The notes: generated from the sequence alone by a model not told the origin. 64,000 nucleotides of DNA from Elusimicrobiota bacterium (GCA_016715645.1 JADJZR010000004.1:101269-165268); one strand, 5' to 3'; positions 13,060 through 33,790 are shown, counted from the stretch's first letter. Translations and numbers: made by a program.

Positions 13060-15530
13060 AACGACCGTAAGCCGTTGAGCCTTTCGACCCCCGTGGGGGG
13101 TTTCTCTAATGGCGGGGTTTTTAAATTTTGAAAAACTCCGTATTCCCATTTCCTTTCCGAATCTCTCCCACTCCTACTGGAGACATTATCATTTGACAGG
13201 TGACTATCCATCCGGCCGACACGATTGACCCTGTAGCATGGGCTTCCAGCCCATGTGGTTTTGCATGGGCCTTTGGAATTTAAGGGGGATGGTTGGGAGG
13301 GGGTGGCTGTGAATCTTCCTTCTCCCGTCCGTGGGAGAAGGTGTCCCGAAGGGACGGATGAGGGGCGGTTTTCCGTTGAACGAAGCCCTTGTAATTCCCT
13401 CGCCCGCTGGTGACTGCGCTAGCAAGAAATGCCGTGTGGGAACGGCCGGGAGAGGGCCAGGGAGAGGGTGGGCGTATTTCACCTCACCCCCACTGGGGGA
13501 GGCCGGTCGCAGAGCTCCCGGCACCTGGGGCGGCAGAGCCGCTGATGCGAGGCAGGGAGCGGGGGGCGTTTTTTTAGCTTCAATTTGTGCCCGCTATGCG
13601 GGCGCCACAGCGCGCCGCTGTTCTCTCCACGTTCTCGTCCAATGAATGGGACAGTAAGCAGGACAAGACCTGGATCTTCGGACCTGGCGAACGCCACGGT
13701 GACCGTGCTCGAACCCCCGGCCACCGAGAAACCCAGCGCCTTTCTTCGCTCATCGAAAACAGCCCCGCCACAGGAAGAAGAGGCCCAGCCATTTCGGGCC
13801 GGAGGAGGAAGCCGGGACCTTGGTTGAATTGCTGGACGGGGAAGAATGGGGACCGCTCCTCTTTCGGTGGATAAAAACGACTGTTCGCCAGGCCACCCAC
13901 GGCGGCGGACTGTGCGCCTGTTAAACGCTAACGGTTGATTCGTCTGCTGTTGAGGGAACAAGCGGACGACCCAACAAGCGGAGAAACCCCACGCTGGACG
14001 AACGCCCGTCGCGGCGCATCAAACGCGCCCAACTCCTGCCTCCAATTTCGACGTTTCCAGCTCCGATCCACGGGAAAAGCCGCGCGGCCTTTTTGCCGCG
14101 CCCCGCTGGGCTCCGGCGGATTCGTTCCCGCCGGACCGGTTCCGCCCATTGCTTCGGTCGGGAAACGGAAACCCGCTGACGGTTATTCTGTCAGTCGCGA
14201 GAGATGTGTTTCCCGCTCCGGTTTGCGGGAAACCCCGCGCCGGACGAACGCCCGTCGCGGCGCACCAAACGCGCCGCAACTCCTGCCTCCGATTCCAACG
14301 TTTCCAGCTCCGGTCCAACGGAGAAGCCTCGCGGCCTTTTTGGCCGCGCCCCGTGGGCTCCGGCTGAATCGTTCCCGGCCGGACCGCTTCCGCCCCTTGC
14401 TCCGGTTGGGGAAGGGAAACCCGCTGACGGTTATTCCGTCGGTCGTGGGAGATATGTTTCCCGCTCCGGTTTGCGGGAAACCCCGCGCCGGACGAACGCC
14501 CGTCGCGGCGCATTAAACGCGCCGCAACTCCTGCCTCCGATTCCGACGTTTCCAGCTCCGGTCCACCGGAAAAGCCGCGCGGCCTTTTTGGCCGCGCCCC
14601 GCTGGGCTCCGGTGGAATCGTTCCCGCCGGAGCGATTCCGCCCATTGCTCCGGTTGGGGAACGGAAACCCGCTGACGGTTATTCCGTCGGTCGCGGGAGA
14701 TATGTTTCCGGCTCCGGTTTGCGGGAAACCTCGCTCCGGACGAACGCCCGTCGCGGCGCATCAAACGCGCCGCAACTCTTGCCTCCGGTTCCGACGTTTC
14801 CCGCTCCGGTCCACGGGAAAAGCCGCGCGGCCTTTTGGCCGCGCCCATGAAGCTCCGGTGGATTCTTTCCCGCCGGACCACTTCCGCCCATCGCTTCGGT
14901 CAGGGAACGAAACCCACTGACGGTTATTTCGTCGCTCGCGGGAGATATGTTCCCGGCTCCGGTTTGCGGGAAATCCCCGCGCTGAACGAACGCCCGCCGC
15001 GGCGCATTAAACGCGCCGCAACTCCTGCCTCCGATTCCGACGTTTCCCGCTCCGGTCTACGGGAAAAGCCGCGCGGCCTTTTTGGCCGCGCCCCGCTGGG
15101 CTCCGGTGGAATCTTTCCCGCCGGACCACTTCCGTTCATCGCTCCGGTCGGGGAACGGAAACCCACTGACGGTTATTTCGTCGGTCGCAAGAGATATGTT
15201 CACAGCTCCGGTTTGTGGGAAATCATTGCTCCGGACGAACGCCCGTCGCGGCGCATGGTTTCCGGACGAGCGTCCTCCAACCAGCCCTTCGGACCCGGGG
15301 CCTGTTCGGCCCGCGCCAACCGTGTGCCGCCCGCCTCCACGGCTCGGCATTAAACGCGCCGCAACTCATGCCTCCGGTTCCGACGTTTCCCGCTCCGGTC
15401 CCACGGAGAAGCCGCGCGGCCTGAGGCCGCGCCCCGCTTCCGCCCCGGCCCCGCTCTGCGGGGCTCCACCTCCCGGCCCGCCGGTCACCTATGGGCTTCG
15501 CCCTTTCTTCGCGCGCGCACACCAAAATCA
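13060..15530. repeat. left arm of a ~2.47-kb inverted repeat (unique ~0.9 kb + tandem-repeat array); partner at 31330-33790
   Basis: Reverse complement recurs at 31330-33790. ORF-track peptides are identical on opposite strands (13204-13524 minus = 33350-33754 plus). The two tandem arrays are ~95% identical to each other. Confidence 0.9.
13996..15480. repeat. tandem array of ~6 copies of a GC-rich ~247-bp repeat (last copy has a ~95-bp insertion)
   Basis: Unit starts at 13996, 14242, 14490, 14738, 14983 and 15233 (periods 245-250). Each unit holds three GCTCCGGT motifs at spacings 92/64/92. It also contains the hairpins gcgcggcc-ttttt-ggccgcgc and gcgccg-N14-cggcgc. Confidence 0.9.
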
Positions 15531-16056
15531 AGTGGAATTCGTCGGTCCAGGAGGTGGACTCAGTCCCCTTCGGGGCCTGAGCGGGGCGGAATTGTGCCCG
15601 AACGGGCACATACCCCTCCGGGGTATACGGATAAAGGCCAGAGCAAATTCCGACACCAACTCTTAAATGCACAGACGAGTTGGGGCACGTTCACTTGTGC
15701 CCCAATTCGTCCGCAAATCGGTAGAGCAAATCCGAAAGTGCCACTGCCGCAGCCGATTAAGTCGGCCGCCCCGCCATGTCAACAGCCAAGGCGCGCGGCC
15801 TTCGGCCGCGATAGGAGCCGTCGCTCTGCTCCGGAAATATAATGGCGGCCAAGTCGTGGCCCCTCCCCCCCACGGTTCTCGCCTTCCTTCATGCTTGGTA
15901 GGCCAACGCTTTTGGCGTTTTTCTCTATCTCTGCTTTGGATCTGACGGCCGTGGCCAGGCCCCTGCCTAAGGGCAGGGGCGGGGGCGGGGCCACAGGCCG
16001 CCGCCCGTACAACCCCCCCTCCCCATTTCAAGGGCAAAACCATGAACACCTGCCCA

Positions 16057-16258
16057 CCCAGGCGCCGAAGGACACGGCTCGCCCGTAGCGCGGAGAGACC
16101 CGCGCCAGCCAGGCGCCGAACAACGCGGCTCGCCCATAACGCGGAGAGACCCGCGCCAGATGGGCGCCGAATAACGCGGCTTTTCCGGGGCGCGTAGGGA
16201 CTCGCGCCAACCAGGCGTCGAACCCCACGGCTAGCCCACTCGGCGTCAAGTGGGGCAC
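16057..16258. repeat. ~52-bp tandem repeat x4 (caggcgccgaa...cgcggagagacccgcgccag)
   Basis: Copies at 16057, 16109, 16160 and 16211, the last two degenerate. Confidence 0.8.
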
Positions 16259-16323: not shown

Positions 16324-16851
16324 TCAGTAAATCCGGGCCAGTCCCCGATCGAGTAATTCTTGATTCAGCCATCGCCCGTCACGGTATACTCGGCCCCAAT
16401 CTATCCGCTCATCCAGGCTGTAAAATATGTGACCCACAAACCGCCCGTGTAAATCTTCTTTACTCGTTCGGATCACAATCTTCTGAGCCTTAGCCAATTG
16501 GTCCCGAACGTAGGCCAACGCTTCCTCCCCACCGTCTTCTTTCAACGGTGGCGTGTCCACTTCCGCCAGTCGAATTCGCTGACCAATCCACACCTCAAAC
16601 CCGAGGTCCAGTCGGACAAGCAAGGTATCGCCATCAACAACACGTTGAATCTCAGCCCGATAGATGAACGGTTCACCCTCCGGGCGCTTTAATTGTTTGG
16701 GCGGTTTCCTGTTTCCGTTTGTGGGATCTTCACCAAAATGGTCCGCTTGGATCGCTTTGACCAGTTCGTCCCGGGTCCACTTCTTTTCGACGGCCGTGGT
16801 CTCGTAAAAACGGCGGGCCTCATCGTTTTTTACCGTCAAAAGTTCCCTGAC
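16324..16851 (-). pseudogene. 3' part of a DUF1016(YhcG)_N / staphylococcal-nuclease (SNase) fusion gene split by the RIT insertion
   Basis: VRELLTVKNDEARRFYETTAVEKKWTRDEL continues the DUF1016 middle region (compare E. coli YhcG WSHNVVLIQSCKSDEERLFY). It is followed by an SNase domain (VVDGDTLLV, RLAEVDTPP, DLHGRFVGHIFY). The apparent start is TTG because this is an internal continuation. Confidence 0.7.
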
Positions 16852-16935
16852 TTATGTTGGCCTCGCACTTATGTTGGCTTCACTCCCACCTCTGACGGCA
16901 CTGTTCTCATTTTACACAACATAACGCGGGCTTGC

Positions 16936-17932
16936 TCACAACCCGGCGAGGAAGGCCATGACGCCCGGGTCCGTTTTCCAGGGTTTGACTTGGCGTCCCG
17001 TCCCGGCGACGTTGCAACGGGCCAGGGCCTTGGCCTTGGTTTCAAAATCGACCTCGGCGTAGATCAATGTGGTGTCCAGTGAAACATGCCCCAGCCAGCC
17101 GCGGATGGTGTTGATATCGACGCCTGAGCGGAGGAGGTGGACGGCGGCGGTGTGGCGGAGGGTGTGCGGGCTGATGCGTTTCTTGAGCATGTCGGGATTG
17201 GTTTTGGCGGCGACGGCGGCATATCTCTGGACGAGTTCGTAGAGGCCGAACCGCGTGATGGCTTTCCCGCCGCGGCTGATGAAGACCGGATCTTCGGGCG
17301 TGCGGCCTGCGGTCAAGCGCTTGAGGGCTTTGACCGTTTCCGGCCAAAGCGGGCAGAAGCGCGTCTTGCGGCCTTTGCCCAGAATTTTGACGGAGGACGA
17401 TCGCCCGAGGTCCAAGTCTTGGATGGTGAGTCGGGCGACTTCATCGGCGCGGGCGCCGGTGTTGTAGAAAAAGAGCAGCACGGCGTAGTCGCGGAACCCG
17501 AGTGAATCCTTAATATTCGGGGCCAGCCTGAGCGCGTCCATTTCCGATTTGTCGAGGTAGGGGACCTGGGGCCTGCCTGTTTTTCTTGAAAGGGACGACA
17601 TGAAGAGCTGAACACCAGGCGACGTGTTCCGGGCTATGCAAGGCGATGAATCGTGCGAGTGAATGGACGGCCGCCAGCCTGTGGTTGCGTGTGGCGATTG
17701 AACAGTGGCGGACCTCTTCCAGGTGGGCGAGGAAACGGCGGATGGCGTCCGGGGAGAGGTCCTCCACATCCAGGCGGTCGACGGGTTTTCGGGCGAGCCC
17801 TGCGGCGAAGGGGAGCAAGAGGACCAAGGCGTCGCGGTAGCTGGCCTGGGTTTGGAGCGCCAGGTTGCGCTCACCGACGATATGCTCCAAGAGAAAGCGT
17901 CGAATCCAGGTACCGACGAGGGCGTTAGACAT
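16936..17932 (-). pseudogene. tyrosine recombinase (ritC-like), frameshifted near 17560-17600
   Basis: N-terminal core-binding domain in one frame (17932-17510). Catalytic domain (HTLRHTAAVHLL...LGHVSLDTTLIYAEV) in another frame. Frames overlap at FKKNRQAPGPLP / SRKTGRPQVPYLD in a C/G run. Confidence 0.7.
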
Positions 17933-18869
17933 GGGAATCCTCCGAAAAGGCGTAGCGGTGGAAGCGGCGGTTGGCGGCGGCGAGGAGCTCCGGGGTCAAG
18001 GTGAGATAGACCTGCGTGTCTTGAAGATGGCGATGGCCCAGGTAAACAGAGAGATGATGGAGTCTTGTGGAGAGGTCCGCGCCCGGCGGCATTCAGGCCA
18101 GGAGCCTGTGGACGGCGGCCGAATGTCGGAGGTCGTGGAGCCGTGGCTAGTAGCGTGCGTCGGCTTCCCGACGGACGCCCGCCTGGTTGCAGATTCGTCG
18201 AAACCAGCATTCGACGGTGGGATGGGACAGGCGGCGACCCGAGCGACGGCCGACGAAGAAGGGTTCTGTCGTTGAGGAGGATTTTGCCCATGGCTTTCGT
18301 TTGACGGCGTAGGCCGTGAGGACTTGGGCCAGCTTGGGGCCAATGGGGACCAGACGTGTCTTGAAGAACTTGGTGTCGCGGATGGTGAGGATCCTCTGGT
18401 CCAGGTCCACGTCGGCGACGGTGAGGAGATCGCCTCGCCGATGCGCAGGGCCGCGCCGTAGAGGGTGAGCAGGACGGCGTGGAGCGTGAAAGGCTCCAGC
18501 TCGTAGGCGAGCTTCATCCGCATATGAGCGACGGCCGCGAGGATCCGGCGGATTTCCTCCGGGCGTAGATGTAGGGTTTCATGCGCTCGGGTTTCTTGGG
18601 TTCGAAGGCCGGGAGGGGCAGTGGAAGGGGAATCTCTCTTCCCGCGCGAAGCGCTGGAGGCCCCGGAGGGCGCTGGCCTTGTGGTGCCAGTATTGGGTAA
18701 GTGGCCCTGAACCGTTGAGAGGCCAGGACCTTGTCGGGTGAAATGCGGCGGTGGTTGCTTTTTCCGATCGTTCGACGAACAGGCGCAGGGCGCGGGCGTA
18801 TGTATCGAACTTCTTGCCAAGGGAGCGTTTGTAGGCGATGTAGCGCTCAACGAGGACGGGGAGCTTCAT
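17929..18869 (-). pseudogene. tyrosine recombinase (ritB-like), at least 3-4 frameshifts
   Basis: Pieces in different frames: MKLPVLVERYIAYKRSLG; HETLHLRPEEIRRILAAV...LYGAALRIGEAI; DLDQRILTIRDTKFFKTRLVPIG; LHDLRHSAAVHRLLA; LGHRHLQDTQVYLTLTPELLAAANRRFHRYAFSEDSHV*. Stop overlaps the ritC ATG. Confidence 0.65.
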
Positions 18870-20100
18870 AGGACCTCCCCCAAGTCGAAGGCGGCGACGT
18901 CGCGTAACGCCGGGAGGTCGACTTTGGCGTAATGTCGGGTGGCGTCGGCGCTCCTGTGGCCGAGGTGGTTGCCGATTTCGGGCAGGGAGAAACCTTCGGA
19001 AACGAGCCGGCTGGCGCAGGCGTGGCGGAGGCAGTGGGGCCCGCGATGGAGGAGCTTGATCCCGGCGCGGTCGATGGGGTTGGCGACGACGGTCCAGAGG
19101 GCCGCGGAGGAGATCGGCCGGACAGGGGCCAAGAGACATAGGAAGACCTCGCGGTGGTGGGTCTTGGGGCGGACCTCTTTCAGGTAACGCAGGATGGCCC
19201 GGCCGACCGAAGGGATAAGCGGATATGTCTGGCGGCGGCGCTGCTTGGTCCTGGGAACGGTGATGCGATCACGGCGCCAGTCGATGTCGTCCAGGCAAAG
19301 GCGGGCGACCTCACCGGCCCTGAAGCCGTAGACGGCGAAAAGGAGGAGGATGGCCCTATTGCGGACGTGGGAGGGGCGGCCGGTGTTCAGGGCGGCGAGG
19401 AGGCGCTTAACCTCGGCCAGAGGGCCCGCGGGGCAGACCTTCGCGGGAATAAATAGTCGGGCCATGGAAGGCATCGGCGAGGCCCGGAGAGCAGAGGCGT
19501 CGGATTTCGGCGTATCGCAGGAAGGACCTGGTGGCGTTGGCGACGTTGAGGACACCGACGCGGGAGAGGCCCTGGGCATGACAGGCGGCCAGGAAGTCGT
19601 CAAGGTCGACGACGCGTAGGCAGAAGAGCGGACGATTCTTCGGTTCCCACCACCGGAGGAAGGTGAGGAGGCTGTATTTGCGGTTCTTGAGCGAACCGAC
19701 GGAGAAACCGCGCTCATGCTCCAGCCAATTGAGGGAAATCCCGGTAGAGGGTCCACAGGGGCCCGGCAGCGGGAGTGGGATCCTTCCAGCGGCCGAAGAA
19801 ACGGAGCCATTGTTTAAGCAGACGTCGGAGTGTCTTGCGAAGATAGGGTAAAACCCGGCCATGACGTTGGCGGACGAAGCGCGCGATGACCGCCTCCACG
19901 CCGGCCGTGTCATGGACCCCGTCGGCCAAGAGCTGGATTGCGGGGACCAAACGGAGCAGGTCCACGGCGGTTTGGGCCAGGTGTCCTGGTTTGTATCCTT
20001 GACGGTCGAGTTGGGCAAGAAATCGCCGGCGTTCTTCTGACAGCGGGGCAGCTTTGTGGCGGGCAACGGCGGACGGGAGCGAGAAGATTTTATCGAACAT
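18866..20100 (-). pseudogene. tyrosine recombinase (ritA-like), two or more frameshifts
   Basis: N-terminal extension MFDKIF... (20100-~19745). Core-binding domain GISLNWLEHERGFS...RSFLRYAEI (~19742-19410). Catalytic domain RNRAILLLFAVYGFRAGE...HCLRHACASRLV...LGHRSADATRHYAKVD (to 18866). Confidence 0.65.
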
Positions 20101-20253
20101 GGTCGGGCACCTCCGAGGGATTGGATACACCCAACCAATACAGCGACTTGTTATGTTATGTCAAGGCAAGGCGTGCTCGACAGAAACAGAGGGCAAAGCC
20201 AACATAAGTACGAGCCCAACATAATACCGCTTATGTTATGCACAACATAAGCG

Positions 20254-20565
20254 CATGTGGGACCAGCTCAATGGTGTGTTTTTGGGGACGCCCTTGGGAT
20301 AATACTGGTGGTAAAGAACACACCGCACCAGAGTTGTCCGGTCGGCGTGTAGCTCGGTGGCAAGCCGTTCCATGATGGACTCGCCGTAGCCGGAGTTTTC
20401 CGTCAGCCGCTCGCGCGCGATACGTTCTCCCGCGCGCCAATAGGTCGTCATCAATGCTTGATTCGTCGCCGCTTGCGCCCTTGCCCGTCCAGTGTCAATG
20501 ATTTTCCGGAGATCAACGACCAGCTTGTCGAACGTTGGGCCGCTTAGGACAATTTCTTTCGTCAT
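20254..20565 (-). pseudogene. 5' part of the DUF1016(YhcG)_N / SNase gene interrupted by the RIT element
   Basis: RAQAATNQALMTTYWRAGERIAR...NSGYGESIMERLATEL is a typical DUF1016 N-terminal region. It reads ...PLSWSHM then enters the RIT terminus. Confidence 0.7.
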
Positions 20566-20975
20566 CAGGATTCACTTTCCAAAAGGTTTTTCAGAGTGCT
20601 AAGGTCACGCTTTACCAAAGCAATATCCGCCATGAATCTCTTTTTAGACATGTTCGGTGACCGGAATAAAGTGAATACCACTTCGCTTCCGGCCCCGTTC
20701 GCCACCACACGCATTGGCACGTAGACCGGAACGCCTCCGGGGGGGAGAATTATGTGGTCCAGAACCCCAAGAGCATTCTTTTTTTCAAGCCGGATCTCAA
20801 CCGGACCCAACGAGGTTTCCATCAACCATTTGCCTTTCTGCCGCCTGGACGCCTTGCAAAACGTCGTCGCCCATCGAGCTAGATTGGCGGGATTGGAGGC
20901 GAAACGGTAAACATCTTTAGGGGTCCGTTTAATAGAAACGCTCAACGTATGCGATACAAGCATGGGGTTTGTCAT
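20565..20975 (-). CDS. SRPBCC (START/Bet v1-like) family protein
   Basis: 136 aa. Weak fold-level similarity only. ATGA overlap with the downstream DUF1016 gene. Confidence 0.5.
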   Translation of the reverse strand: MTNPMLVSHTLSVSIKRTPKDVYRFASNPANLARWATTFCKASRRQKGKWLMETSLGPVEIRLEKKNALGVLDHIILPPGGVPVYVPMRVVANGAGSEVVFTLFRSPNMSKKRFMADIALVKRDLSTLKNLLESES

Positions 20976-22308: not shown

Positions 22309-23709
22309 TCAGCGCGGCTGAGCGCGTTCGCGCCAGTGGCGATCCCATCGGCCGTCTTGGGAGTGATAAAGGGCACACAAGGCGAGCATTTCTTCGGCCC
22401 CCGTTTGATGAGGAGGCTGAGTTTCGGTGGGCTGAAATCCATTCCAAAACTTCTCACTTCCTTTCATGCGCAAGCCGAATTGTTTGACAGCGCCTTCGGC
22501 CACCCCGGACCCAATGGGCCATCCGTTGGCCCGGAAGCGGGGATAATCCATCGCGGTTTGGTTGTTGGGAAAATAGGAGGTGGCGTTTTGGTGGAGGACT
22601 CGGCGCGGAGATGCCTCCGAATCGGTTTCGGTCGGTGGTCCCAGCCGGTCGGATAAACAACCAAGATCGGCGATGATCCGGTCGGATTTTCCCTCCCAGA
22701 GCAACTCCTTGTGGTCCTCAAACCAGCGGAGGGCATCCGGCGTTCCCTCTCCGAAGGCGGCCTTAGCGCAGTCGGAAAGATGTTGGGCGGCGTGGGCCCA
22801 ATCAAGAATAAACGTGGCTTCCGGGAAATGCAGGTTCTTGAGCTCGCGGATCGACCGAGCTCCATCCGCCACGAATAAGCGATTTTCGGCGCGGGCGTAT
22901 CCCCGGCGTTCGGCTTCCACACGTAACAGCCACCCCATGGCCTCCCAGTCGGCCAGAGTGGCCACGTAGGTTTTTGTTTTTGCCTTCGCGCCTTCGTATT
23001 CACCCCGGGGAACGTGCGGCTGGGGGGTGGCCGTCGCGTCGTAGACGATGCCGATTTTGTCCTCCTTCCACCGTTCCCGAGGATCCGCCGATCGCGTCTG
23101 CACCCGTCCGCCGTCCGCCGCGATCACCAGCAGTCTCGGCGCCTGCGTCGTGGACGCGGGGCGCGCCCCGGCTTGATAGGAGGTCCGTTCCTGATCGCGC
23201 TCTTTGCGCACACGGCCCCCCTCCGTTCCCGCGATCCATCGCACGTGTTTGGCGCTCAGATCAACGTTGGAATGAACCTGAAGGATCTCTCGCCCCGCTT
23301 CAAAAGACCGCCCCACCACCGCCGCGTGGCAAATCTTCTTGCGCGTCTCCACGCTGGGACCAAACGGCGGAATCCCCAACGCCTCATCCAGCGGCGCGCC
23401 CGTGTGTCCGCACCGGTCGCAGACACCATAGGCCCGCCGGTATTCAATGGGTCCCACCGCCGTTTGAATCACCCGCCGTTGCGCTGTATTCTGAAACCGC
23501 CACCGTCCTGTGCAATGTCGACAGCGGGCCTCCTGGGGATGCGTTCGGGGGTCCTCCTCCAAACGCGATGTGAGCATCGCCTGGGCCAGCTCACGGCCGA
23601 GGCTCTCCGCAAACACCGCCAATTCCGACAGGGTCATGTCTTTCGTCATGGAATAACGCATCCTCCCGAAGTTTCCTTTTGATAACGTCAGAAAATCCGT
23701 CTCGTTCAT
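22309..23709 (-). CDS. DDE transposase, ISKra4-like
   Basis: 466 aa. N-terminal CxxC...CxxC zinc ribbon. DG and ILDWAHAAQHL motifs. Family assignment made from memory. Confidence 0.6.
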   Translation of the reverse strand: MNETDFLTLSKGNFGRMRYSMTKDMTLSELAVFAESLGRELAQAMLTSRLEEDPRTHPQEARCRHCTGRWRFQNTAQRRVIQTAVGPIEYRRAYGVCDRCGHTGAPLDEALGIPPFGPSVETRKKICHAAVVGRSFEAGREILQVHSNVDLSAKHVRWIAGTEGGRVRKERDQERTSYQAGARPASTTQAPRLLVIAADGGRVQTRSADPRERWKEDKIGIVYDATATPQPHVPRGEYEGAKAKTKTYVATLADWEAMGWLLRVEAERRGYARAENRLFVADGARSIRELKNLHFPEATFILDWAHAAQHLSDCAKAAFGEGTPDALRWFEDHKELLWEGKSDRIIADLGCLSDRLGPPTETDSEASPRRVLHQNATSYFPNNQTAMDYPRFRANGWPIGSGVAEGAVKQFGLRMKGSEKFWNGFQPTETQPPHQTGAEEMLALCALYHSQDGRWDRHWRERAQPR

Positions 23710-25780: not shown

Positions 25781-26355
25781 AACCTTTCTTTTTGATTCTT
25801 TGTCTCGTTTTGCCTCTTAGCCTTCAGGCAGGAAAATCCCCCCAGACCCATGAGGAGGACGGCCACAAGGACGAACACGGCGACCACGTGGACCACGACG
25901 AAGATGACAAGGGCCATGAGGAAAGCGAGGGACATGGGGAAGAAGGCCACGAGGAGGGTGAAGAAGAAGCCTCCTCCAGCGTCGGTCCCGGCAACGCCGT
26001 GACGGCCACCGACCATGAGAACGGTCTCCAGCTCTCTCCTGAAGCCGTCGCCACCTTGGACATCAAAACCCATCCCGCGCCAATGGATTCCCTGTTCCCC
26101 AAGAAAGCCATCGTCACCTCCAAGGACGAAACTGGCGTTTACCGCCTCCGGGACGGATGGTACAAATTGGTCCAGGGCAAAACCGAGCCGCAGGGAGACC
26201 GCGTCCGCTTCACCCCGCACCGTAAACAAGACCTCCGCCCCGGCGACCAGGTCGTCGTCGAGGGTGCCCCTCTCCTCCGCGTCGCCGAACTCGACGCCTT
26301 CTCGACCGGCGAAGCCGGCACGGCCATTAGGCTTTCCAGGAGACAACCACGATAG
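25777..26355 (+). pseudogene. CzcB-like RND membrane-fusion protein with His-rich N-terminus, internally deleted (~190 aa remaining)
   Basis: Signal peptide. HEEDGHKDEHGDHVDHDEDDKGHEE. MFP N-terminal strand (LQLSPEAVATLDIK) joined directly to the C-terminal beta-domain (VTSKDETGVYRL...GDQVVVEG). Coiled-coil/lipoyl middle absent. Confidence 0.55.
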
Positions 26356-29300
26356 AAAAACTCGTCAGATTCTCCGTCAACAACCAGGGGCCTCGTCTTC
26401 GCGTTGGCCCTCATCCTCGCTGGGTTGGGCTGGACCAGCTTCCAGGCCCCTGCCTATCGACGCCGTGCCCGACACCAACAATCAGGTCCAGGTCAACACC
26501 GCCGTGGAAGGCCTCACTCCTGAGGAAATCGAGCGCTACATCACCGTCCCGATAGAGAACGGCATGGGCGGCCTGGCGGACCTTCTGCAGACCCGCTCCA
26601 TCTCTCGGTTCGGCCTCTCCCAAGTCACGCTGGTCTTTGAGGACAGGGTGGACATTTACCGCGCCCGGCAGGTGGTCTCCGAGCGCCCGGGCGGCGTCAT
26701 CCCCGCAGCTCCCCGAAGGCATCCAGCCCGGCCTTGGCCCTGGCTGCAGCACGGGCCTGGGCGAGGTCTACTTACACTCTCCAAGCCTCCACCCCCCGCC
26801 GTTGGGGCCGCGCGCATCGCCCAGCTCATGGAGCTCAAGAGCATCCAGGACTGGTATCTGAAGCCCCGCTCTCTCACCGTCCCCGGCGGCCGAGGTCAAC
26901 AGCATCGGCGGCTTCGAGAAACAGTTTCACGTCCAACCCGACATCCGCGCCATGGCCCGCTACGGCCTCCACTTCGACGACCTCATCGAGGCCCTCGAGA
27001 ACACGAACCGCAACGTGGGCGGCGGCTACGTCCAGCAGACGGGCGAGCAGTTCCTTGTCCAGGCCACCGGCCTTTTAGAAAACGTCGAGGATGTCCGCCA
27101 GGTCCCCATCAAGTCCCTGGAAACGCTTCAGACCATCCGCATCGGCGACGTGGCCAAGGTCCGCCTCGCCACGGATTGCGCACAGGCGCGGCCCCTGGTG
27201 AACGGCCGGAGGACATCGTCGGCACAGCCCGCATGCGCTTGGGCGAAAACAGCCGCGTTGTCGCCCACCGCGTGGCGGAGAAAGTGGCGGAGGTCAAGAA
27301 GGGCCTCCCCGAGGGAGTCGTTCTCAACGTCCTCTACGACCGCTCCGTCCTAGTGGACGCCACGCTCGGCACCGTCAAGCACAACCTCGTCACTGGCGCC
27401 GTCCTGGTCATCGTCATCCTGGTCCTCCTCCTGGGCAACTTCCGGGCCGCGCTCATCACCGCCGTTACCATCCCGCTCACGCTCCTCATCACCTTCATCG
27501 TGATGAAGCGCCTGGGCATGTCCGGCAACCTCATGAGCCTGGGCGCCCTGGACTTCGGCATCATTGTGGACGGGGTGGTCATCGTCATCGACAACTGCGT
27601 GCGCCGCGTCCACCACCACAGCCAGGAACTGCGCCGCGCGCTCAAGAAAGATGAGCTGTCCCGCACCATCGAGGAGGCCACGCTCGAAATCCGACAGTCC
27701 GCCGGGTTCGGCCAGCTCATCATCGTTGTGGTCTTCCTTCCCATCTTCGCCTTCACCGGGGTGGAGGGCAAGATGTTCGTCCCCATGGTGGGGTCCTTCT
27801 GCATCGCGCTCATGGCCGCCTTTGTCCTTTCCTTCACCCTGGCACCGGCCCTGGCCAGCCTCTTCCCTCAAGGGGGACGTGGGGGAGAAGGAGCCTTGGC
27901 TCATGCTCCGCATCCGACACATCTATGCCCCGACGCTCCAAAGACTTCTGAAATACCGCCCCGGGGTATTGGGGTTGGGCGCCTTCTCCATCCTCCTTGG
28001 CGGTTTCCTCTTCACACGCCTGGGTGGCGAGTTCCTCCCACAGCTGGACGAAGGCTCCCTCGCCATCCAGTTCGTCCGCCCCGGCACCATTAGCATAGAC
28101 CAGTCCGTGGCCCTCCAAGAAAAAAGCGAAGCCGTCATCCGGGAGTTTCCCCAGGTCAGCCTTGTCTTCAGCCGCATCGGCACTGCCGAGGTCGCCACCG
28201 ACCCCATGGGCGTGAACCTCTCGGACACCTTCATCCTCCTCAATGAGAGGGACAGTTGGGAGCCCATCAACGGCAGAAAGCCATCCAAGTCGGACCTCTC
28301 GGACGCGCTGGTCGCCCGCCTGCGGCTCAAGGTCCCCGGCCAACGCATGCTCATCACCCAGCCCATCCAGATGCGCTTCAACGAGCTTTTAGAGGGCACC
28401 CGTGCGGACATCTCCGTCAAAATCTTCGGCGACGACATGGACCGCCTTTCCGACCTCGCCGGGAAGATCAAGGCCGTCATAGACAAAGTGCCGGGCGCAG
28501 GGGACGTCGAGCTGGAGGTCCAGGGCAAGTCGCCCCTCCTGCACGTCAAACCCAACCTCGAGATGCTCCATTCCCTGGGCGTCTCCAACCGCGAGGTGCT
28601 GGAGACCGTGGGCACCGCCGTTGGCGGTCAAGAGGTGGGGGTCATCTATGAGGGGATGAAACGGTTCCCCATCGTCGTCCGGCTAAACGAGAAGGACCGC
28701 TCCGACCTGGACGCCTTGAGGGCCCTCCCCGTCGGCCTCTCCGCCAACACCACCGTCCCGCTGGCCGAGGCGGCGAGCCTCCGCTTCACGGACACCTACG
28801 GCGCATACTCCCGCGAGATGGGCAAGCGTCGGGTCGCCATCCTCGTCAACCCGCGCGGCCGCGACACGGGGAGCTTCGTGGCCGAGGCTCAAAGGAAGGT
28901 CGAGGAGGCCGTTAAGATGCCCTCGGGCTACTTCATCGAGTGGGGCGGCAACTTCAAGAACCTCCAACAAGCCAAGTCCCGCCTGGCGGTCTTAATGCCG
29001 CTGGTCCTGGTCCTTGTCCTCGGCATGATCTTCGTTGCCTTCCGCAACGTCTACGAGACTCTCCTTATCTTCTCCTGCGTCCCCCTGGCTCTGGTGGGCG
29101 GAGTTTTGGGCCTCATGCTCAACGGCTTGCCCTTCAGTATCTCCGCGGGGGGGTTTCGTGGCCCTCTCCGGCATCGCGGTCCTGAACGGCGTGGTCCTCA
29201 TCAACTGCTTCAACGACCTCCACCGGCTGGGCGTTACGGGGAAGGACCTCATCCACCAGGGCACGGACCTCCGGATCCGCCCCGTCCTCATGACGGCCTT

Positions 29301-29487
29301 GGTGGAAATCTTCGGCTTCCTGCCCATGATGCTCTCCTCAGGGATCGGCTCGGAAGTCCAGCGCCCCCTGGCCTCCGTCGTCATCGGCGGCGTGGTGTCC
29401 TCGACGCTCCTGACTCTGGTGGTCCTGCCGGTGCTGGTGTCACTGCTTGAAAAGAAAATCTGGCGCGAAAAAGAGGTGGAACTATGA
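26356..29487 (+). pseudogene. CzcA/CusA-family heavy-metal RND transporter, at least 5 frameshifts, start codon lost
   Basis: Recognisable CzcA segments occupy alternating frames: IEKLVRFSVNNQG; LVFALALILAGLGW; AVPDTNNQVQVNTAVEGLTPEEIERYITVPIE; QLPEGIQPGLGPGCSTGLGEVYL; MARYGLHFDDLIEALENTNRNVGGGYVQQTGEQFLV; the TM bundle; a long middle block (ORF 27564-29450); C-terminal TM helices (ORF 29035-29487). Confidence 0.7.
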
Positions 29488-31329: not shown

Positions 31330-33790
31330 CTTAATTTGCGCGCGCGAAGAAAGGGCGAAGCCCATAGGTGACCGGCGGGGCGGGAGGTGGAGCCCCGCAG
31401 AGCGGGGCCGGGGCGGAAGCGGGGCGCGGCCTCAGGCCGCGCGGCTTTTCCGTTGGACCGGAGCGGAAAGCGTCGGAATCGGAGGCAGGAGTTGCGGCGC
31501 GTTTAATGACCGAGCCGTGGGAGGCGAGGGCGCCGTGTGCCAGTGGCACACGGTTGGCGCGGGCCGAACAGGCCCCGGGTCCGAAGGGCTGGTTGGAGGA
31601 CGCTCGTCCGGAAACCATGCGCCGCGACGGGCGTTCGTCCGGAGCAATGATTTCCCACAAACCGGAGCTGTGAACATATCTCTTGCGACCGACGAAATAA
31701 CCGTCAGTGGGTTTCCGTTCCCCGACCGAGCGATGAACGGAAGTGGTCCGGCGGGAAAGATTCCACCGGAGCCCAGCGGGGCGCGGCCAAAAAGGCCGCG
31801 CGGCTTTTCCCGTAGACCGGAGCGGGAAACGTCGGAATCGGAGGCAGGAGTTGCGGCGCGTTTAATGCGCCGCGACGGGCGTATGTCCGGAGCGATGATT
31901 TCCCGCAAACCGGAGCCGGGAACATATCTCCCGCGACCGACGAAATAACCGTCAGCGGGTTTCCGTTCCCCGACCGGAGCAATGGGCGGAAGTGGTCCGG
32001 CGGGAACGAATCCACCGGAGCCCAGCGGGGCGCGGCCAAAAAGGCCGCGCGGCTTTTCCCGTGGACCGGAGCGGGAAACGTCGGAATCGGAGGCAGGAGT
32101 TGCGGCGCGTTTAATGCGCCGCGACGGGCGTTCGTCCGGGGCGGGGTTTCCCGCAAACCGGAGCGGGAAACATATCTCCCACGACCGACGGAATAACCGT
32201 CAGCGGGTTTCCGTTTCCCGACCGAAGCGATGGGCGGAATCGCTCCGGCGGGAACGATTCCACCGGAGCTCAGCGGGGCGCGGCCAAAAAGGCCGCGCGG
32301 CTTCTCCGTTGGACCGGAGCGGGAAACGTCGGAATCGGAGGCAGGAGTTGCGGCGCGTTTAATGCGCCGCGACGGGCGTTCGTCCGGCGCGGGGTTTCCC
32401 GCAAACCGGAGCGGGAAACATATCTCCCACGACCGACGAAATAACCGTCAGCGGGTTTCCGTTCCCCGACCGAAGCGATGGGCGGAATCGCTCCGGCGGG
32501 AACGATTCCACCGGAGCTCAGCGGGGCGCGGCCAAAAAGGCCGCGAGGCTTCTCCGTTGGACCGGAGCTGGAAACGTTGGAATCGGAGGCAGGAGTTGCG
32601 GCGCGTTTGGTGCGCCGCGACGGGCGTTCGTCCGGCGCGGGGTTTCCCGCAAACCGGAGCGGGAAACACATCTCTCGCGACTGACAGAATAACCGTCAGC
32701 GGGTTTCCGTTTCCCGACCGAAGCAATGGGCGGAACCGGTCCGGCGGGAACGAATCCGCCGGAGCCCAGCGGGGCGCGGCAAAAGGCCGCGCGGCTTTTC
32801 CCGTGGATCGGAGCTGGAAACGTCGAAATTGGAGGCAGGAGTTGGGCGCGTTTGATGCGCCGCGACGGGCGTTCGTCCAGCGTGGGGTTTCTCCGCTTGT
32901 TGGGTCGTCCGCTTGTTCCCTCAACAGCAGACGAATCAACCGTTAGCGTTTAACAGGCGCACAGTCCGCCGCCGTGGGTGGCCTGGCGAACAGTCGTTTT
33001 TATCCACCGAAAGAGGAGCGGTCCCCATTCTTCCCCGTCCAGCGATCGAACCAAGGTCCCGAATTTCTCCTCCGGCCCGAAATGGCTGGGTCTCTTCTTC
33101 CTGTGTCGGGGGCTGTTTTCGATGAGCGAAGAAAGGCGCTGGGTTTCTCGGTGGCCGGGGGGTCGAGCACGGTCACCGTGACGTTCGCCAGGTCCGAAGA
33201 TCCAGGTCTTGTCCTGCTTACTGTCCCATTCATTGGACGAGAACGTGGAGAGAACAGCGGCGCGCTGTGGCGCCCGCATAGCGGGCACAAATTGAAGCTA
33301 AAAAAAGCCCCCCGCTCCCGGCCTCGCATCAGCGGCTCTGCCGCCCCAGGTGCCGGGAGCTCTGCGACCGGCCTCCCCCAGTGGGGGTGAGGTGAAATAC
33401 GCCCACCCTCTCCCTGGCCCTCTCCCGGCCGTTCCCACACGGCATTTCTTGCTAGCGCAGTCACCAGCGGGCGAGGGAATTACAAGGGCTTCGTTCAACG
33501 GAAAACCGCCCCTCATCCGTCCCTTCGGGACACCTTCTCCCACGGACGGGAGAAGGAAGATTCACAGCCACCCCCTCCCAACCATCCCCCTTAAATTCCA
33601 AAGGCCCATGCAAAACCACATGGGCTGGAAGCCCATGCTACAGGGTCAATCGTGTCGGCCGGATGTAATAGTCACCTGTCAAATGATAATGTCTCCAGTA
33701 GGAGTGGGAGAGATTCGGAAAGGAAATGGGAATACGGAGTTTTTCAAAATTTAAAAACCCCGCCATTTTAGAAACACCCCCCGGTTGGAA
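31330..33790. repeat. right arm of the ~2.47-kb inverted repeat (tandem ~247-bp array 31380-32870 + unique ~0.9 kb)
   Basis: Reverse complement of 13060-15530. The six unit copies are mirrored (ggcgcgttt at 31495, 31855, 32100, 32345, 32590, 32835). Confidence 0.9.

Follow-up and report, generated by a model that had tools for sequence, protein, structure and literature searches.

Within the window analyzed here (the whole 64-kb stretch of DNA), a nuclease-like gene is split by three tandem tyrosine-recombinase genes that are framed by inverted repeats. The locus raises the question of how such a trio, known as a RIT element, came to lie in this gene: where the inserted DNA begins and ends, how its position relates to that of other copies, and what it brought along. 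The element itself is of a known kind, and the sequence-only reading that a RIT element interrupts a nuclease-like gene holds, with the recombinase genes (Pfam Phage_integrase / Phage_int_SAM) standing in tandem on the minus strand and intact forms of the host gene found elsewhere. At the level of the genome the meaning is ordinary, namely a transposon that knocks out a nuclease-like, candidate-defense gene.

The host gene, also on the minus strand, encodes 278 aa with a DUF1016_N domain followed by a C-terminal SNase domain (PF00565 in the rejoined protein); NCBIfam gave weak thermonuclease matches only. Both halves are still open and contain no further stop codons. Rejoining 20257–20565 with 16324–16851 yields a single ORF in which one DUF1016_N match (PF17761; residues 19–143, E = 1e-21) crosses the junction, and the restored protein has 282 single-protein homologues, the best of which is 278 aa long and 91% identical. 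The suggestion that an uninterrupted ORF could be restored was thus borne out. The N-terminal part of the host protein is 92% identical to that of the intact protein P0001, the motif WSH-x-RELL is present in every intact homologue, and the family matches candidate defense models (PDC-S02). Colinearity with Escherichia coli YhcG had also been proposed, but only the N-terminal DUF1016_N domain is common to both; YhcG ends in a PDDEXK domain (YhcG_C), whereas the host protein carries an SNase/thermonuclease-like domain instead. The host gene thus has another architecture and is no orthologue of YhcG.

The limits of the insert were set by comparison with an empty allele, L001, which reads CAC GTC AGG GAA at the insertion site. 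This comparison places the insert at 16852–20256 (3405 bp), between the codon for His-103 and the x-Arg codon pair that follows it. Deletion of these bases gives a 278-aa protein of which 253 residues are identical to those of P0001, without gaps. In the direction of the host gene, the insert consists of a 6-bp sequence (O1), a palindromic module of 20 bp, a second 6-bp sequence (O2), the inverted repeat IR_A, the genes ritA, ritB, and ritC, and the inverted repeat IR_C, after which the native 6-bp sequence O3 follows (Table 1). The distance from inverted repeat to inverted repeat is 3373 bp, and the 32 extra bases beyond the right inverted repeat are accounted for by the two 6-mers and the palindrome. 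The host reading frame runs into the insert for six codons before it meets a stop (MRLCCA*), the first of 11 in-frame stops, and we infer that the nuclease-like protein is truncated by the insertion.

Table 1. Features of the interrupted gene and the inserted element, in the direction of the host gene.
Feature	Position	Strand	Description
Host N-terminal part	20257..20565	-	Codons 1-103, up to ...W S H; within DUF1016_N; from ORF list
O1	20251..20256	-	6-mer ATGCGC (Met-Arg), in frame with host N-terminal part; not in empty allele L001
Palindromic module	20231..20250		20 bp, TTATGTT-ATGCAC-AACATAA on + strand
O2	20225..20230	-	6-mer GCGGTA, reverse complement of TACCGC (Tyr-Arg); between module and inverted-repeat tip
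IR_A	20151..20224		ritA-side terminal inverted repeat; two direct CCAACATAA(G) motifs 17 bp apart, one inverted about 50 bp inward; repeat search and motif map
ritA	18866..20100	-	411 aa in intact copies; indels at 19413, 19421, 19733; Pfam, alignment to intact L014
ritB	17925..18869	-	316 aa in intact copies; 4-bp overlap with ritA; indels at 18424, 18560, 18614, 18719 (2 nt), 18773
ritC	16936..17932	-	331 aa in intact copies; 8-bp overlap with ritB; one extra T at 17580
IR_C	16852..16924		ritC-side terminal inverted repeat, mirror image of IR_A
O3	16846..16851	-	Target 6-mer GTCAGG (Val-Arg), abuts inverted-repeat tip; same as L001
Host C-terminal part	16324..16845	-	DUF1016_N end, linker, SNase-like domain, stop codon

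The three recombinases were examined in intact copies. In translations of L014 inspected by eye, the residues R...HxxR...(H)...Y are found in all three proteins (RitA, FRAGE...HCLRH...GH...RHY; RitB, LRIGE...HDLRH...GH...QVY; RitC, ARADE...HTLRH...GH...LIY). According to Smyshlyaev 2021, RitA is extended at its N terminus by a second core-binding domain and RitC at its C terminus by a helix; here, Xer models reach residues 121–401 of RitA and 15–302 of the 331 aa of RitC, and the remaining extensions are of the expected size. The genes in L028 (209–1444, 1441–2391, and 2384–3379) overlap by 4 and 8 bp, as do those in the window and in the trio on the Paraburkholderia phymatum plasmid pBPHY02.

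When set against intact copies with ~99% identity (P0121, an intact relative of RitC, is 99% identical), each of the three genes in the window carries frameshifts, as had been noted from the sequence. The accompanying view that the element is now probably immobile is not secure, as nine of the 10 indels are homopolymer-length changes. The frameshifts could instead be assembly or sequencing artefacts in an unpolished, multicopy repeat, in which case the element in the genome would be intact and potentially active. We take this to be a serious explanation that falls somewhat short of even. The nine indels are single-base changes in short homopolymers, mostly deletions, and two more local differences resemble compensating homopolymer shifts. 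By count from the list of differences, substitutions are few, about equal in number to the indel events, and no indel of the window recurs in L014, L022, L025, L028, or L036. Outside the RIT element, one frameshift was found among five suspicious ORF pairs checked. Against an artefact, the long ORFs in the rest of the window are undisturbed, so that the error would need to be confined to the repeat, and slippage at homopolymers is also the most frequent kind of indel in nature. That O2 has not been homogenized with O3 fits an inactive copy, though a recent one as well. With nine of 10 indels being of this homopolymer type relative to intact copies of 99% identity, the sequence does not discriminate between real decay and an assembly error.

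The element ends are terminal inverted repeats of about 75 bp, in which a stretch of 29 nt (16852–16880 and 20196–20224) is 93% complementary, in agreement with the imperfect inverted repeats built from CTTATGTTGG motifs that had been proposed; in the window, these motifs occur at the two element ends only. The palindrome, which lies 6 bp outside one inverted repeat, consists of two facing recombinase-type motifs with 6 bp between them. The same design is present in L003, L008, L009, L025, L028, L036, L037, and L039, and in the RIT element of the Paraburkholderia plasmid. The module was found at each of the seven junctions with the host N-terminal part that were read as DNA, and at none of the six junctions with the C-terminal part.

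Comparison of copies showed that RIT elements 98.8–99.7% identical to that of the window lie in related genes. Copies of ~99% identity occupy one and the same codon position in four or more alleles or paralogues, which are themselves only 46–91% identical; the element is thus site-specific. The inverted-repeat tip directly abuts [M/V/Y]-R-E/V-L-L codons in the window, L028, L029, L014 (at both ends), and L022. The flanks X and Z are the two halves of one paralogue, P0114 (46% identity to the host protein), and the empty site of P0114 is present in L034. A single ancient insertion inherited vertically was rejected, given copies ~99% identical in hosts 46–91% identical, and given intact alleles with flanks 100% identical to those of interrupted ones. 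As to what defines the site, target half-sites matched the element motif at seven of 12 positions at best, inconsistently among targets, and the overlap gave no usable target consensus beyond x-Arg (NNNMGN). Since the element is repeated, several of the contigs that bear on these points, being metagenomic and short (3.5 kb), may combine flanks of different copies: in L014 the host C-terminal part flanks the element at both ends, and in L028 the two halves belong to different alleles. Among contigs considered for other RIT lineages, L030–L033 end within the inverted repeat and have no flanks, and L010 (P0030), which begins 5 nt before the TTG of the C-terminal part, is uninformative. In the contig of P0122 (RitC 84% identical), the gene list alone shows a 109-aa DUF1016_N ORF in antisense directly past ritC.

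The two sides of the insert differ in how their 6-mers relate to the interrupted allele. In four of four cases, the 6-mer next to the inverted repeat is the one found in the nearest intact allele. At the module side, the window encodes Met where its nearest intact allele (91% identity in protein, about 81% in DNA, and no strain match) encodes Val. Other copies also have a foreign 6-mer at the place equivalent to O1. P0242 has Tyr versus Val; L036 has Tyr next to a flank 100% identical to that of P0002, which has Met; and L039 has Val next to a flank 100% identical to that of P0004, which has Met. The conserved palindrome (TTATGTT-N6-AACATAA) is always on the side of the imported 6-mer. The reverse complement of O2 reads x-Arg in six of seven module junctions of the gene family, or in five of six distinct ones, L037 and L038 being the same sequence; in neither L008 nor the window is O2 reverse-complementary to O3.

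By the pattern in the other copies, O3 would be native and O1 foreign in the window. We interpret O1 as probably imported from the previous site of the element, still encoding the x-Arg pair of another allele. The earlier statement that there is no target-site duplication is strictly correct, but it overlooked the foreign 6-mer that occupies the same codon pair across the insert. From these comparisons we infer that a true target duplication is absent and that the element, in the manner of Tn554 and SE elements, carries a 6-bp fingerprint of its donor. A classical core shared by both junctions was also sought; only ACAT is common to them, and it would not rebuild the empty allele.

A different origin of the two 6-mers is improbable in our judgment. 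ATGCGC and GTCAGG could be a scrambled true 6-bp target duplication, or the gene could be a chimera of two alleles formed by recombination between RIT copies, with no donor fingerprint in either case. Recombination of this kind is plausible, as the copies are ~99% identical and evidently numerous, and L036 and L029/L039 show rearranged contexts. However, the two 6-mers differ at five of six positions, which is beyond point mutation, and L001 resembles the N-terminal part of the window gene as closely as the C-terminal part (81.2% and 81.4%), on which ground a chimeric window gene was rejected. In L036 and L039, moreover, the N-terminal protein part matches an intact allele at 100% identity as far as the 6-mer, and it is the 6-mer alone that differs. 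The asymmetry is also systematic, in that native sequence always stands at the inverted-repeat side and foreign sequence at the module side.

We find it hard to credit that the locus is a simple, exact, in-frame RIT insertion of 3402 bp, bounded by its inverted repeats alone, with nothing imported and now dead. Removal of 16852–20253, as first proposed, does leave an open frame, the inverted repeats are real, and the frameshifts are present in the sequence. That frame, however, has 279 aa, one residue too many, since it joins the halves as WSHM-V-RELL, compared with WSH-x-RELL in all intact homologues. The empty allele puts the right end at 20256, 3 bp farther, and the 32 conserved bases outside the right inverted repeat have no place in such an insertion. 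Nor is a precise in-frame length a property of the family. It is a one-in-three coincidence, given that the host frame soon meets a stop and that a related RIT insertion in an IS66 gene (L003) measures 3859 bp, which is no multiple of three. Equally far-fetched is a reversible switch in which precise excision restores the nuclease gene, as in the skin and nifD elements or active lysogeny: the halves are open, excision across the 6-mers would give a functional x-Arg pair whichever 6-mer stays, and the family has its candidate-defense matches, but there is no sign of excision, the recombinase genes of the window copy are frameshifted, related copies lie in rearranged contexts rather than in conserved, maintained split genes, and intact halves are just what a recent insertion would leave.

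The reading that we favor, and consider likely, is that 16852–20256 is a RIT transposon inserted between His-103 and the x-Arg codons and carrying a 6-bp fingerprint of its donor. In the proposed movement, the three recombinases would swap strands over a 6-bp overlap at AACATAA-N6-TTATGTT sites. The mobile form, probably a circle, would take 6 bp from the inverted-repeat-side flank of the donor and, at the new site, deposit them beside the module; the one-sided fingerprint suggests that the reaction is strand-biased. The module may act in recombination, and O2 could be an older relic 6-mer, reversed by in situ inversion of the segment bounded by the inverted repeats. A hairpin or telomere-resolvase-like source of the 32-bp palindrome was considered and not adopted, two tandem 6-bp sites with an inversion being simpler and fitting.

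More tentatively, RIT elements may in general be strand-biased and site-specific, with each move copying the x-Arg 6 bp, excision rewriting residue x, and the internal site using secondary sites. The 6-mers O2, O1, and O3 might then be read as the itinerary of the window copy, from a Tyr-Arg allele through a Met-Arg allele to the present Val-Arg allele. If this is true, excision would leave a foreign 6-mer and thereby rewrite residue x of the target protein, which could explain why x varies (Tyr, Phe, Val, Met, or Ile) in the otherwise conserved W-S-H-x-R. The perfect internal site (module-N6-inverted-repeat tip) may also recombine with secondary sites, giving solo modules, and whole circular DNAs could integrate through it, as suggested by contig Ga0558121_01724.

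RIT elements were described between 2009 and 2013 and are very abundant; relatives of RitC with E < 1e-40 number more than 7,900. According to a 2023 review (PMC10214605), their target specificity and movement were "not tested" and their transposition had never been reproduced. The RIT papers that were read contain no report of target specificity, a 6-bp rule, or experimental transposition. The target and fingerprint rules appear to be new, and some of the end features are possibly already in Ricker 2013. ("RIT" in PMC12306157 denotes rho-independent terminators, not the recombinase trio.) The window copy and ~10 related contigs supply an empty site, both junctions, a putative joint site, and a rule of 6-bp polarity, the set of sites that the design of a recombination assay needs.

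The present element shares the adjacent ritA–ritB–ritC tyrosine-recombinase genes with RIT elements of Cupriavidus, Paraburkholderia, and others (Van Houdt 2009, 2012; Ricker 2013). Described elements have the same protein sizes (~410/315/330 aa), ORF overlaps (4 and 8 bp), and total size (~3.4–3.5 kb), and, like the window element, they have terminal inverted repeats of ~29–37 bp with an adjacent palindrome and a CAACAT(A/G)AG motif repeated 17 bp apart. The present element differs in its host, apparently an Elusimicrobia-like organism, judging solely by the names attached to homologues of the interrupted protein. RitA, which was compared on its own for the relationship to described hosts, shows 42% identity along 100% of its length with trio proteins on Cupriavidus, Paraburkholderia, and Mesorhizobium plasmids. 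Among these, the pBPHY02 trio of P. phymatum encodes proteins of 413/309/331 aa, the first of which shows this 42% identity to RitA over full length. Comparison of the termini with RIT ends, as the sequence-only reading had suggested, gave the design of pBPHY02, in which the motifs are spaced by 17 bp and the palindrome stands 6 bp away from the inverted-repeat tip, and agreed with the published description of an element of about 3.5 kb with imperfect terminal inverted repeats of about 28–34 bp and a palindrome beside them.

Tn916/CTnDOT-type integrases use a 6–7-bp overlap in which element and target need not match, and flanking bases ("coupling sequences") travel along. In Tn916, either junction may receive the donor bases after replication, whereas in the RIT element here the fingerprint is one-sided. 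Tn916 is also conjugative and has one integrase plus Xis, unlike RIT.

Likenesses are also found in SE (strand-biased circularizing integrative elements) and Tn554, which, like the RIT element here, are target-specific tyrosine-recombinase elements that leave no target duplication, as set out in PMC10214605. There, attB contributes 6 bp at one side and the donor 6 bp at the other, and our comparisons point to the same asymmetry in the RIT element. A 20-bp module 6 bp outside one inverted repeat is not described for SE or Tn554 in the text read. SE encode IntA, Tfp, IntB, and Srap, and Tn554 encodes TnpA, TnpB (large), and TnpC, whereas RIT consists of three Xer-like recombinases; the window element holds only these three genes, with no counterpart of Tfp, Srap, or TnpC. 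On sequence grounds, RIT elements would thus be linked mechanistically to Tn554 and SE elements, alike in their 6-bp behavior but not members of either group.

The block of 3.4 kb comprises three tandem tyrosine-recombinase genes, each in several ORF pieces, and is flanked by two ORFs (see table). The flanks as first joined give a 279-aa protein in which a single DUF1016_N match (PF17761, residues 19–143, E = 1e-21) crosses the joint and is followed by an SNase domain (PF00565); the host is therefore a DUF1016_N plus thermonuclease-like protein. Single-protein homologues of the rejoined host number 282 (best P0001, 91% identical, 278 aa), and those with names come from Elusimicrobia metagenome bins. 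The claim of the sequence-only reading that a RIT (recombinase-in-trio) element disrupts a nuclease-like gene is real. The likeness to YhcG extends to the N-terminal domain alone, the C-terminal domain of the host protein being SNase. DUF1016_N also gives the protein a match to the candidate-defence models PDC-S02 of PADLOC.

The boundaries first proposed (16852–20253) had to be corrected to 16852–20256. In every aligned homologue the motif is W-[SA]-H-x-R-E/V-L-L, x standing for a single residue, whereas the first reconstruction has two there (M and V). The empty allele in loci L001/L002 reads TGG AGT CAC GTC AGG GAA CTT TTG ACG, and the window reads ...TGG TCC CAC / ATGCGC TTATGTT... at the N-side junction and ...CCAACATAA / GTC AGG GAA CTT TTG ACG at the C-side junction; this comparison sets the insert at 3405 bp. 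Its removal leaves a 278-aa protein that is identical to P0001 at 253 of 278 positions, gap-free, and the upstream flanking gene is syntenic with L001. That the insert length is a multiple of three, as is that of the intact copy in L036 (3411 bp), is chance and without consequence: the RIT insert in L003 has 3859 bp, which is not a multiple of three, and in the window the host frame ends after MRLCCA, with 11 stops in that frame within the insert.

Features of the window and of the comparison loci, with the bases at the IR tip of four alleles
Feature	Sequence	Coordinates	Strand
109-aa ORF flanking the 3.4-kb block	window	20236–20565	minus
171-aa ORF flanking the 3.4-kb block	window	16324–16839	minus
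RIT insert	window	16852–20256	minus
Upstream flanking gene, 136 aa	window	20565–20975	
51-bp tandem repeat (3.6 copies, 75% matching)	window	16054–16237	
248-bp tandem-repeat arrays (5.2 copies each, 89–92% matching)	window	13978–15256 and 31617–32896	
Array similar to the 248-bp arrays	L001	7514–8531	
466-aa ORF matching UPF0236	window	22309–23709	
RND efflux transporter gene (ACR_tran)	window	26015–29450	
Bacteroidia RIT (RitA 553 aa)	L003	1602–5466	
Terriglobia RIT (~5.9 kb)	L008	1786–7698	
Additional 633-aa ORF between IR and ritC	L008	2254–4155	
Interruption at the second position	L009	8530–8588	
Empty site of the second position	L011	around 8500	
Solo module attached to host-family N part	L039	6490–6530	
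RIT and C part of the L039 allele	L029	4700–8110	
IR tip: GTCAGG-GAACTTTTGACGG	window		
IR tip: GTCAGA-GAACTTTTGTCGG	L028		
IR tip: ATGCGC-GAATTGTTGACGG	L029, L014		
IR tip: TACCGK-GTCCTWCTAACG	L014, L022		

The 51-bp tandem repeat lies directly 3′ of the host stop codon, and the two 248-bp arrays are inverted to each other, bracketing a 16.4-kb segment with the split gene and the RIT; the similar array of L001 follows directly downstream of its intact gene. The UPF0236 ORF, of a transposase-like family, is separated from the split gene by 1.7 kb, and further mobile DNA may thus be present in this neighbourhood.

Scanning metagenomes and genomes for the terminal motif pair brought up close relatives of the element. 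Those in L014, L028, and L036 have intact rit genes of 411, 316, and 331 aa that overlap by 4 and 8 bp. Over its full length, RitA has 42% identity to the first gene of trios carried by Cupriavidus, Paraburkholderia, and Mesorhizobium plasmids; RITs were defined in these taxa. In P. phymatum, the pBPHY02 locus has a trio of 413/309/331 aa that shares its overlaps and end design with the window element: CAACAT(A/G)AG motifs lie 17 bp from each other, and a palindrome stands 6 bp beyond one IR tip. These features agree with the published description of RITs as elements of ~3.5 kb with 28–29-bp IRs and a palindrome adjoining one end (PMC3414803), and the window element is a member of this known family. 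RitA (N-terminally) and RitC (C-terminally) also extend beyond the Xer core, by sizes that would fit the RitA and RitC subgroups.

All three recombinase genes of the window copy do carry frameshifts, as first noted. Over the 3373-bp IR-to-IR element, it differs from L014 by ten indels (net −6 nt): one in ritC, five in ritB, including a 2-nt event at 18719, and three in ritA. In nine of them, a short homopolymer has changed length, mostly by loss of a G or C, and two small substitution clusters resemble compensating homopolymer shifts. Substitution events are few, about as many as indels, and none of the window's indels is shared with other RIT copies. Long ORFs elsewhere in the window are intact; of the five suspect ORF pairs examined beyond the RIT, only the RND transporter gene is split, and its two overlapping ORFs cover profile positions 278–489 and 509–918. 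Because this pattern fits slippage decay of a dead copy and a multi-copy repeat left unpolished in a long-read assembly alike, the proposed immobility of the element is unproven.

At each end of the element, two direct CCAACATAA(G) copies lie 17 bp apart, with one inverted copy ~50 bp further inside. Outside the ritA-proximal IR lie 32 extra bases that read, on the minus strand, ATGCGC (O1), TTATGTT-GTGCAT-AACATAA (the module), and GCGGTA (O2). This 6-7-6-7-6 layout is present in every close relative showing the N-terminal junction, in the Bacteroidia and Terriglobia RITs (L003; L008/L018), in a second RIT lineage (L009), and in a Paraburkholderia element (L035). The rit genes occur in either orientation relative to the host gene; regardless of their direction, the module is found at seven of seven N-terminal and none of six C-terminal junctions at the DNA level. 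It adjoins IR_A, the repeat next to ritA, in the window, L028, and L036, and IR_C, next to ritC, in L025/L022, where its spacer is flipped.

The IR tip meets the x-Arg codon pair of the host gene family at six junctions in four alleles (see table). The TACCGK flank and the N-side flank of L025 and L028 are the two halves of a paralogue (P0114/P0103/P0120) that is 46% identical to the window's host protein and whose empty site in L034 reads GCGCAC/TACAGG/GTCCTAC. The element enters the same codon position repeatedly. A single old insertion passed on vertically is excluded, since RIT copies are 98.8–99.7% identical to the window copy, against only ~70–81% for the host DNA around them. At least four further alleles have 109-aa N-part ORFs running into the module (...WSHxR-LCCA-stop or -LCYA-stop), and in a RIT lineage that is 84% identical, such an ORF adjoins ritC. 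Much of the comparison draws on short contigs, from metagenomes, of an element that is repeated. Many RitC-bearing contigs measure 3.4–3.5 kb, the element's own length, which suggests that RITs often assemble as separate collapsed-repeat contigs; the flank pairs of L014 and L028 may therefore not share one genomic copy.

Different targets are used by other RIT lineages. The L003 element lies in an IS66 transposase gene, between ...AVGR and KNYLF, with GGGAGA, TCTCCC, and GGAAGA as O1, O2, and O3 (the 6-mer at the other IR tip); that of L008 lies where a helicase-like gene starts, and its junction 6-mers, CTCAGA and CTCCGC, are synonymous Leu-Arg pairs. The L009 lineage occupies a second position (after ...FIYRA) of the same nuclease gene family, 66 codons beyond the first, so this gene is struck by RITs at two positions; its end reads TTATGTT-ATGCAT-AACATAA, CCATCG, and then the IR tip TTATGTTGTGTTCC.

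The x-Arg 6-mers on the two sides of the window element, ATGCGC and GTCAGG, differ at five of six bases. The first reading was right that there is no target-site duplication, but it overlooked this foreign 6-mer on the module side. When each interrupted half was compared with its nearest intact allele, the IR-side (C-terminal) 6-mer agreed in four of four cases (V/V, M/M, V/V, Y/Y). On the module side, the encoded residue was M versus V in the window, Y versus M (P0002) in L036, V versus M (P0004) in L039, and Y versus V in P0242, even though the N parts of L036 and L039 are 100% identical to P0002 and P0004. Every foreign 6-mer encodes [M/V/Y]-Arg, residues used there by intact alleles (Y 59, F 21, V 11, M 8, I 4 among those counted). 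On the simplest reading, the element would arrive with six bases of the site it last occupied, this position in a different allele, and leave them on the module side, the target's own six being kept on the IR side. As O1 is diverse, the travelling 6-mer would be taken from the donor's IR-side flank. Such visits, leaving 6-bp footprints, could contribute to the variation of x (Y, F, V, M, or I) in the otherwise nearly invariant W-S-H-x-R and of its Arg codon (CGC, CGT, CGG, AGG, AGA), although this is an idea only.

The reverse complement of O2 is an x-Arg pair at six of seven module junctions in this gene family (five of six distinct ones, L037 being the same as L038): TACCGC, TACCGG (twice), TACCGT, and TTCCGC (twice), L039 being the exception. 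O2 is also the exact reverse complement of O1 in L025/L022 and L003, and that of O3 exactly in L025/L022 and at five of six bases in L003. These relations can be accommodated by a model in which the mobile form would carry two tandem AACATAA-N6-TTATGTT sites, at IR_C tip/module and module/IR_A tip, and a single inversion in situ, from the inner site to the junction of IR and flank, would turn O2 into the reverse complement of O3. The window's O2 (reverse complement TACCGC) matches neither O1 nor O3, which fits a copy not flipped since arrival. L037/L038 and L039 have solo modules, without a RIT, at this position of the gene. L039 and L029 lie ~20 kb apart on one 106-kb contig (Ga0558121_01724), in the same orientation and in the order RIT – C part ... 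N part – module; speculatively, this is the layout expected from a ~24-kb circle integrated via the module/IR site.

The specialist interest lies in the comparison set rather than in the window alone, the points being a defined target codon, no target duplication, a putatively imported one-sided 6-mer, and a conserved palindromic module. For RITs, target specificity and movement have been listed as "not tested," and transposition has never been reproduced (PMC10214605). Experiments have demonstrated fingerprint/footprint behaviour for SE elements, and it is reported for Tn554 as well (PMC10214605); the one-sided 6-mer of the window RIT would correspond to that behaviour, here as read from sequence comparison.
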